The notes: a model not told the origin generated them from the letters alone. DNA of 6,377 nucleotides from a virus (IMGVR_UViG_2645727555_000011), one strand, 5' to 3'; positions 3,104-3,783 are shown, counted from the stretch's first letter. Numbers and translations are program-made.

Positions 3104-3418
3104 TTATGACATTGCTGCAAGGCTCAGCGCATCTTCCAGCGCCGCAAACGGATCCACCTCCGGCTTGTCCTCATCCTCGCCCCAGCAGAGCATGGCGTCC
3201 TTCAGTGCAACATTCATCCCCTGTGCCCCGAAAACCGCTTTCACGATCTGTGCATTACGGATATCCCCGCGCTCATCACCCAGCGGGGATACCCTGTCGA
3301 ACTCCATCCACATCATCGCCTCGCTCGCACTCAGGCTGTGCCGCAGTTCGGATAAGGTGCGCCCCAGACGGAGCGCAAGTCGCATCAGAAAGCGAATTTC
3401 CGGGCGGGCTACTTTTTT
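3104..3418 (-). CDS. gpT-like -1 frame extension of the tail assembly chaperone; expressed only as a G-T fusion of about 225 aa via programmed -1 frameshift at 3412-3418
   Basis: An open reading frame in the -1 frame relative to G runs from the slippery site to a stop at 3104-3106. Predicted junction: ...AESARKK|VARPEIRFLMRLALRLGRTLSELRHSL.... The track lists only the internal-Met portion (3104..3385). Position between G and the TMP matches the lambda G/GT arrangement. Confidence 0.72.
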   Translation of the reverse strand, partial: KKVARPEIRFLMRLALRLGRTLSELRHSLSASEAMMWMEFDRVSPLGDERGDIRNAQIVKAVFGAQGMNVALKDAMLCWGEDEDKPEVDPFAALEDALSLAAMS

Positions 3419-3783
3419 CTGGCCGACTCTGCATCAGCGATCAGTTCCAGTGCCTGACGCAGCAACCGGGCATGTACCGGACCATAGACGGCCAGCACCT
3501 GCTCACGGTCGTCCGGAGTGAACACCCGTTGCAGGTCAGTATCACACAGGACATCGCAGAACAGCGTCACATCCGCTTCCAGGTTACGGCGGGTTTTCGC
3601 CACCACCGACAGGGTATCGTCATCCTCTCCATCACCATTGAGCACTTCCTGCCACAGATACCAGGCCTCTGCCGAAGGCTCCCGCAGCACCACGCTGACA
3701 TTTCTCCATTCCGGCACCTTCACCGTTTTATGACGGAACCCCGACAGTCTGGCCAGCGCCAGTGTTTTCAGATCTTTTGCCAT
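3409..3783 (-). CDS. Tail assembly chaperone, gpG-like (zero-frame product, 124 aa)
   Basis: Track ORF of 124 aa, acidic, located between the major tail protein gene and the TMP gene. It ends ...AESARKK-stop with the A_AAA_AAG heptamer as its last codons, which is the conserved position of the G/GT frameshift in long-tailed phages. Confidence 0.8.
   Translation of the reverse strand: MAKDLKTLALARLSGFRHKTVKVPEWRNVSVVLREPSAEAWYLWQEVLNGDGEDDDTLSVVAKTRRNLEADVTLFCDVLCDTDLQRVFTPDDREQVLAVYGPVHARLLRQALELIADAESARKK
3412..3418 (-). other. Slippery heptanucleotide A_AAA_AAG (X_XXY_YYZ) for -1 programmed ribosomal frameshifting
   Basis: Plus strand 3412-3418 reads CTTTTTT, so the minus strand reads AAAAAAG. 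Zero-frame codons are AGA-AAA-AAG-TAG; the -1 frame stays open into the T-like ORF. Confidence 0.75.

Follow-up and report, generated by a model that had tools for sequence, protein, structure and literature searches.

The locus considered here raises the question of whether two short reading frames that overlap at a run of six adenines, in the tail module of a virus, represent two genes, the remains of one broken gene, or a single recoded gene from which a second and longer protein is made by -1 frameshifting. The last of these is a familiar device: long-tailed phages make two tail assembly chaperones, G and GT, at a fixed ratio by frameshifting, which has been textbook knowledge since 1993 and 2004, and a -1 frameshift conserved in the G/GT chaperones of these phages is reportedly described in the work of Xu, Hendrix and Duda from 2004. 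The DNA that we analysed, hereafter the window, is a stretch of 6,377 nucleotides (IMGVR_UViG_2645727555_000011), in which a sequence-only reading had proposed a G-like/T-like chaperone pair joined at the heptamer A_AAA_AAG. The genes on which the argument turns are the following:

3789..4505, minus strand: gene for the major tail (tube) protein, which matches phrog_158 'major tail protein' (E 1.6e-117)
3409..3783, minus strand: gene for the G-type tail assembly chaperone, with a zero-frame product of 124 aa that belongs to the HK97 gp13 family
3104..3412, minus strand, -1 frame: T-domain extension of 102 aa, then TAA at 3106..3104; on our reading expressed solely within a 226-aa GT fusion, as its C-terminal part
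3..3053, minus strand: gene for the tape-measure protein, which runs off the window (PF06120, PF20155, PF09718; phrog_339, E 0)

The 124-aa protein matches the Pfam family PF06222 (Phage_TAC_1) over profile positions 1-124 of 124 with an E-value of 2.3e-61 (205.6 bits, Pfam cutoff 25); at E ≤ 0.01 it had no match to any further Pfam family. It further matches phrog_344 ('tail assembly chaperone') in PHROGs and, at E 1.8e-46, PDB 2OB9, which is HK97 gp13 itself (identical across 128 residues). The extension in the -1 frame matches PF06223 (Phage_tail_T) with an E-value of 5.9e-19 (68.7 bits, Pfam cutoff 25.9), as well as phrog_337 in PHROGs. Pfam membership was judged for both proteins against the curated gathering thresholds, and both exceed them. 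One further profile, phrog_14766 (224 positions), takes in G on positions 1-122 and T on positions 125-222 and thus was built from fused GT proteins. The full-length match of the first protein and the match of the second bear out the proposed chaperone pair, with one refinement: the label 'G-like' is right as to position and function, whereas the protein itself is a member of the HK97 gp13 family.

On the minus strand the genes follow one another in the order portal C-terminus, head-tail adaptor, head closure protein, gp10-like protein, tail terminator, major tail protein, G, T and tape measure, which is the canonical siphovirus order, with the G and T frames placed between the major tail gene (4505..3789) and the tape-measure gene (from 3053). 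Several peculiarities of the neighbouring genes may be recorded alongside. The major tail protein bears an in-frame C-terminal Ig-like domain at residues ~149-233, recognised by the Pfam families Ig_2, Ig_3 and I-set and also by Hoc-like PHROGs. The portal-region protein (6040..6348, minus strand) has a weak match to CBM_5_12 at residues 52-77 (E 2e-4, below the Pfam cutoff); that the portal gene might be broken at the right end of the window was considered and rejected, as its frame is open to the window edge. Between the tail-terminator (gp17-like) and major tail genes lies a terminator-like hairpin, CCCGCCGCGTGCGGG followed by TTTTTT, at 4542..4528 on the minus strand. HK97 has an annotated 'putative terminator' at the equivalent place, and the hairpin may help to adjust how strongly the major tail protein is expressed, its level being high.

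Read directly, the minus strand of the window at 3425..3405 is CGGCCAGAAAAAAGTAGCCCG, in which the zero-frame codons are AGA (3420-3418), AAA (3417-3415), AAG (3414-3412) and TAG (3411-3409), so that the G frame has precisely the AGA-AAA-AAG-TAG ending and the slip site that had been claimed for it. Two features define the junction:

3418..3412, minus strand: slippery heptamer A_AAA_AAG, as read from the sequence, whose end forms the last two sense codons of G, followed by the stop TAG at 3411..3409
3412..3433, minus strand: overlap of the G and -1 (T) frames, 22 nt over which both are open, containing the heptamer

The heptamer has the X_XXY_YYZ phase relative to the 124-aa ORF (3783..3409, minus strand). 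Upstream, the -1 frame is closed by a stop at 3436..3434; from 3433 onward it stays open as far as the TAA at 3106..3104, which agrees with the earlier statement that it is open to 3104. Since both frames are open for these 22 nt only, a shift leading to a G-T fusion must fall inside 3412..3433. By program translation, a -1 slip gives a fusion of 226 aa with the junction ...ESARKK|VARPEIRFLM..., where a length of about 225 aa and the same ...SARKK-VARPEIR... junction had been predicted, and the junction peptide of the predicted GT fusion reads …SARKKVARPEIR….

Such heptamers are rare in the window, the eight genes of which hold 6 in-frame X_XXY_YYZ heptamers per 1950 codon positions, and the A_AAA_AAG at 3418..3412 is the sole one in G. 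The -1 opening that follows it extends for 102 codons. The five other in-frame heptamers were considered as further recoding sites in the window and rejected, each running into a -1 stop within 3-26 codons.

To place the junction among its relatives we ran tblastn with the GT fusion as the query, which gave 230 phage records; in these the matches to the fusion always came in two pieces in different frames, and one of the proteins, gp69' of Burkholderia phage Bcep176, has been deposited as a two-piece CDS with a -1 frameshift in the manner of HK97 gp14. A search of viral contigs with the G alignment gave near-identical copies only, and the distant loci came via the T-domain alignment, with which we gathered 80 loci from different species, among them Enterobacterales, Halomonadaceae, Achromobacter, Burkholderia and Pseudomonas. 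In 79 of the 80 loci the frame of T is -1 with respect to an ORF upstream that matches the G profile (PF06222-like). Every intact locus (78/78) has A_AAG or A_AAC in frame as the slip codon of the junction, at the position equivalent to that in the window. The slip motifs are distributed over the intact loci as follows:

A_AAA_AAG: 46/78
A_AAA_AAC: 4/78
G_GGA_AAG: 5/78
G_GGA_AAC: 1/78
Non-canonical NNN_AAG, in which the A-site A_AAG alone is kept (G_GAA_AAG, A/G_GCA_AAG, A_GAA_AAG): 22/78

The stop codon of G directly abuts the heptamer in 49 of these 78 loci, and canonical in-frame heptamers are found at 57 of 1745 positions in the G/T overlap against 32 of 10169 elsewhere in G, which makes the overlap about ten times denser in them. 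This density, together with the rarity of in-frame heptamers in the window and the unique long -1 opening, means that the heptamer at the G/T junction is not due to chance. As judged from the alignments, the site shifts its place and its sequence, and what is always retained is the recoded architecture with its A-site Lys/Asn slip codon. Constancy of the architecture and the slip codon in the face of a changing motif is the signature of selection for ribosomal frameshifting. The two sole exceptions among the 80 loci look like decayed prophage copies: in Serratia sp. L9 (L149) T is at +1 relative to G, and in the symbiont genome of Candidatus Symbiopectobacterium endolongispinus (L099) G is truncated by an early stop.

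Closer to the window itself, Stx-converting lambdoid prophages of E. coli O157 and its relatives (Sawaravirus, phage BP-4795) share 99.6% identity with the G-T segment, which is found in 1246 of 5426 complete E. coli genomes, a single genome having as many as 7 copies. Taken over its full length, the window has no more than 98.1% identity to the complete E. coli genomes of the collection and is hence a further mosaic copy of this module. In 79 of 80 near-identical IMG/VR copies AGAAAAAAGTAG occurs with exactly six A's, and the remaining contig ends before the site; the length of the A-run is thus invariant in the 79/79 close copies that cover it. A difference of 1 nt in length from the closest relatives (751 vs 752 nt) was considered as a possible change in the A-run, and was found instead to lie at 3079, in the stretch that separates T from the tape-measure gene. 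It is the only indel relative to the nearest relatives and lies outside both ORFs.

These observations bear directly on the notion that the two frames are a decayed single gene, i.e. a once-continuous GT ORF split by a frameshift mutation or by a sequencing error in the poly-A tract. Although tracts of this kind are prone to indels, and related prophages have neighbouring genes of which some are recorded as 'frameshifted' pseudogenes, the A-run of the close copies does not vary, the one indel at 3079 leaves both frames untouched, and the homologues included no in-frame version of GT. Moreover, the two-frame arrangement recurs in 79/80 species-level loci, in the 230 phage records and in the 1246 E. 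coli genomes. This conservation excludes a decayed single gene, to which we accordingly attach next to no probability.

Two side observations concern decay in the vicinity. The difference at 3079 is a 1-nt deletion inside a terminator-like hairpin in the spacer that runs from the T stop (3104) to the ATG of the tape-measure gene (3053): the relatives have CCTGCTGTGGCAGG followed by T8 (5-bp stem) and the window has CTGCTGTGGCAG followed by T8 (4-bp stem). The variant of the window is seen in 0/80 near-identical IMG/VR copies, of which 23 have the GG form and 57 show other differences at the spot, and the deletion could either truly weaken an attenuator that separates GT from the tape measure or reflect a sequencing error beside the homopolymer. 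In E. coli O157:H7 PV15-279, the closest chromosome copy (L001), the portal gene (1-765) and the gp17 tail-completion gene (1888-2231) are annotated as 'frameshifted' pseudogenes, and the G-T site is intact despite these neighbours; hence an intact slip site alone is no marker of a functional module. The suggestion of the sequence-only reading that the intact pair argues for a functional tail module is therefore to be taken in a weaker form. It is consistent with all the ORFs of the window, which look full length against their profiles, but the slip site by itself is no proof, and the window is a part of a prophage. The intact site still counts, to a small degree, against decay of the tail module in this copy.

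If the two frames are not one broken gene, they might still be two separate ones, with T translated independently and the heptamer incidental. This is how the region is commonly annotated: RefSeq/PGAP and GenBank enter the pair as two CDSs of their own ('phage tail assembly chaperone'; 'phage tail assembly protein T'), the second of which begins at an internal ATG:

3383..3385, minus strand: internal ATG annotated as the start of T (PGAP, GenBank); the Met of a conserved F-L-M motif

We compared, in 40 sequences with the G stop directly after the heptamer, the entropies of the codons from that stop to the ATG in the T frame. The ATG (3385..3383) is invariant in 40/40 of the aligned sequences, as a true start would be, but the preceding residues V, P, F and L are conserved almost as strictly, in 39-40 of 40, and the entropies summed upstream of the ATG are 7.3, 6.9 and 13.3 for the first, second and third codon position, respectively. 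Such a coding signature between the G stop and the ATG implies that the stretch is translated in the T frame, for which only a fusion offers an explanation. The stretch before the ATG pairs weakly with the anti-Shine-Dalgarno sequence, at -3.5 kcal/mol in the window and a median of -1.5. An independent T would also need neither the strict -1 phase (79/80) nor a slip codon in a very short overlap (78/78), it sits ill with the annotation of HK97 gp14 as a fusion, and it is opposed by the 7% frameshifting of an identical cassette (PMC3711429), to which we turn below. Taken together, these points make a separate T gene highly improbable, and the conserved context suggests that the ATG at 3385..3383 is most likely just the Met of the F-L-M motif and not the start of T.

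A direct test of whether the sequence is recoded is already in print. Antonov et al. 2013 (NAR 41:6514, GeneTack; PMC3711429) defined a 'Phage_TAC' cluster of 41 frameshifted genes similar to the HK97 protein, and in the same study Antonov, Coakley, Atkins, Baranov and Borodovsky assayed two members of the cluster with a GST-insert-MBP reporter in E. coli MG1655, obtaining 6% and 7%. The 7% ± 0.79 of -1 frameshifting belongs to the 'Phage_TAC' insert of fs-gene 15618692, and the 6% to a second member with the slip site G_GGA_AAG (PMC3711429 Table S2). An exact string match to the first of these inserts is found in the window:

3364..3438, minus strand: stretch 100% identical to the tested 75-nt cassette (PMC3711429 Table S2 insert)

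The same 75-nt string is also present in 73/80 close IMG/VR copies. The value of 7% is a figure for the reporter cassette, from which we infer the efficiency in the native mRNA. Together with the conservation of the slip codon and the -1 phase, the result on the identical cassette upholds the description of the pair as competent for recoding.

The GST-MBP reporter alone cannot separate ribosomal from transcriptional slippage (PMC3711429), and the shift could in principle arise from RNA polymerase slipping on the A6 run and adding one A to some transcripts, with no part played by the ribosome. A homopolymeric A run is the kind of site at which this would be looked for, and some homologues have 8 consecutive A's (e.g. 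the loci L089 and L096). Nevertheless, the run in the window is of 6 A's, whereas realignment is associated with >7 A (PMC3711429), and homologues recode with G_GGA_AAG, GCA_AAG or GAA_AAG, which contain 3-4 A's only; the tested member with G_GGA_AAG still gave 6% (PMC3711429). What is universally kept is the in-phase A-site Lys/Asn slip codon, a ribosomal signature. On this comparative evidence transcriptional slippage appears unlikely, and we would assign it only a very small chance, marginally above that of a separate T gene.

We also examined what might stimulate the slip. No GGAG, GAGG or AGGA core is present 3-18 nt upstream of the heptamer in the window (TGATGCAGAGTCGGCCAG), and a Shine-Dalgarno-like core is present upstream in 32/78 homologues. 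The downstream fold of the window has z = -2.0 over 60 nt and -1.1 over 90 nt, and the mean z over 72 distinct homologues is -0.48. Within this fold a weak AU/GU-rich hairpin begins 5 nt 3' of the heptamer, and a second candidate lies farther on:

3358..3377, minus strand: 8-bp GC-rich hairpin found by folding, UGCGCUCC-GUCU-GGGGCGCA, which begins 34 nt 3' of the heptamer

The latter overlaps the codons of a conserved T motif, A-L-R-L-G-R. It recurs in many homologues (7-8 bp, loci L089-L168) and is lost wherever the motif ends in G-K. The recurrent GC-rich hairpin is formed by codons of the T motif A-L-R-x-G-R, namely GCG-CUC-CGN-NUG-GGG-CGC, and in many Enterobacterales it thus contains codons for Leu (CUC) and Gly (GGG) that are comparatively rare by E. 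coli standards. Pair counts in the homologue alignment lend the 3358..3377 hairpin no covariation support (0.084 vs 0.055-0.103 in slid controls), and by the folds, the z-scores of the 72 homologues and the pair counts neither candidate downstream hairpin is supported beyond the conservation of the coding sequence. The alignment suggests that the GC-rich hairpin is probably a by-product of coding and not a stimulator. The site is thus without a supported stimulatory RNA structure or an upstream Shine-Dalgarno-like element, and the caveat of the sequence-only reading that no convincing stimulatory hairpin could be recognised holds good, its proposed 60-nt downstream fold having given the z = -2.0 cited above and no supported stimulator. 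The lack of a Shine-Dalgarno-like core and of a supported downstream structure fits the modest efficiency of ~7%, as against ~50% in dnaX. We entertain, as a rather doubtful idea, that the efficiency is set by the UAG abutting the heptamer (a 'shifty stop', A_AAA_AAG_UAG) or by the distal GC-rich hairpin at +34 acting as a modulator; the published cassette with its 45-nt flank holds both the abutting stop and the +34 hairpin and so does not separate them.

Thus, we hold with high confidence that the site is a programmed -1 ribosomal frameshift that serves the two tail assembly chaperones of an HK97/lambda-like E. coli siphovirus prophage, of the Stx-converting 'Sawaravirus'/BP-4795 type. Of the features by which the G/GT family is recognised, the position of the ORFs, the -1 phase, weak initiation signals for T and an in-phase slip sequence are present, and the low-efficiency production of a fusion is represented by the published reporter value of 7% on the identical 75-nt sequence. 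The feature is accordingly not new: it belongs to the conserved G/GT family, within the HK97 gp13/gp14 subfamily, and its sequence had been assayed before.

The sequence, frames, families, gene order, conserved recoded architecture and efficiency of the identical cassette are demonstrated here or in the literature, and from these the following course of events may be proposed. Most ribosomes would translate the 124-aa G and halt at the TAG at 3411..3409. A minority, ~7% in the reporter, would slip back by one base on AAA-AAG (3417..3412), presumably by re-pairing of tRNA-Lys from AAG to AAA, in tandem or at the A site, as in dnaX. The slipped ribosomes would then read …KK-VARPEIRFLM… up to the TAA at 3106..3104, yielding the 226-aa GT. 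By analogy with lambda gpG/gpGT, many copies of G and a few of GT would coat the tape-measure protein via the G domain, and the T domain would recruit the major tail protein, which would polymerise as a tube around the tape measure; both chaperones would then depart and be absent from the virion. On the same analogy, the tape-measure protein is the expected partner of the G domain and the major tail protein that of the T domain, and G/GT would be required for tail assembly here.

As G/GT frameshifting has long been known and the exact sequence was assayed in 2013, the discovery value of the finding is small. What it offers in practice is a correction of annotation: T figures as a free-standing gene in RefSeq/PGAP and in most GenBank records, whereas it should be annotated as a -1 fusion with G. 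With T annotated from the internal ATG, the 226-aa GT protein is missing from the databases that are built on such records.

The relationship of the window to the systems already studied can be stated with some precision. With respect to the Phage_TAC cluster of Antonov et al. (2013), the window is a copy of a member, with no difference at the site itself. The γ/τ frameshift of E. coli dnaX uses an A_AAA_AAG heptamer identical to that of the window, in keeping with the likeness to which the sequence-only reading had drawn attention, and tandem tRNA-Lys slippage is presumably the same in both. The dnaX signal has an upstream Shine-Dalgarno-like stimulator and a downstream stem-loop, and reaches ~50% (PMC3711429). 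Measured against that three-part signal, the window has the heptamer and lacks the upstream Shine-Dalgarno-like core, and the shift in dnaX truncates the protein whereas that in the window extends it.

Lambda gpG/gpGT shares its recoding logic with the window, and the function is very probably the same. The slip site of lambda is G_GGA_AAG, lies near the end of G and shifts at ~3-4%, compared to the A_AAA_AAG of the window at ~7% in the reporter. The lambda gpG is probably filed in a Pfam family other than PF06222, whereas the lambda T domain belongs to PF06223, the same family as the T of the window. The lambda pair is reportedly the subject of work by Levin, Hendrix and Casjens in 1993 and by Xu, Hendrix and Duda in 2004, 2013 and 2014. 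In lambda, the partner of G is the tape measure and that of T the major tail protein, and both chaperones are absent from the virion; G as well as GT is required for tail assembly, and the G:GT ratio is 30:1 (PMC5009743, Atkins 2016 review).

The nearest of the classical systems is HK97 gp13/gp14, which has ~60% identity to the window over the fusion. Both G proteins belong to PF06222, the pair has the same place between the major tail and tape-measure genes and the same -1 phase, and the T extension starts with the same F-L-M-x-L-A-L-R motif. The two differ in detail at the junction, the overlap in HK97 reading CGG_GAA_AAG, without a canonical X_XXY_YYZ heptamer, where the window has A_AAA_AAG, and the G ORF of HK97 running 5 codons past the slip site where the heptamer of the window abuts the stop. 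HK97 also has a 'moron' gene, gp15 (L003, 2232-2420), between GT and the tape measure, where the window has a 50-nt spacer only; Klebsiella phage ST13-OXA48phi12.2 (L005, 2253-2537) likewise has an additional small ORF at this place. The HK97 gp14 record, for its part, is a two-piece CDS described as 'translated due to a -1 frameshift'.
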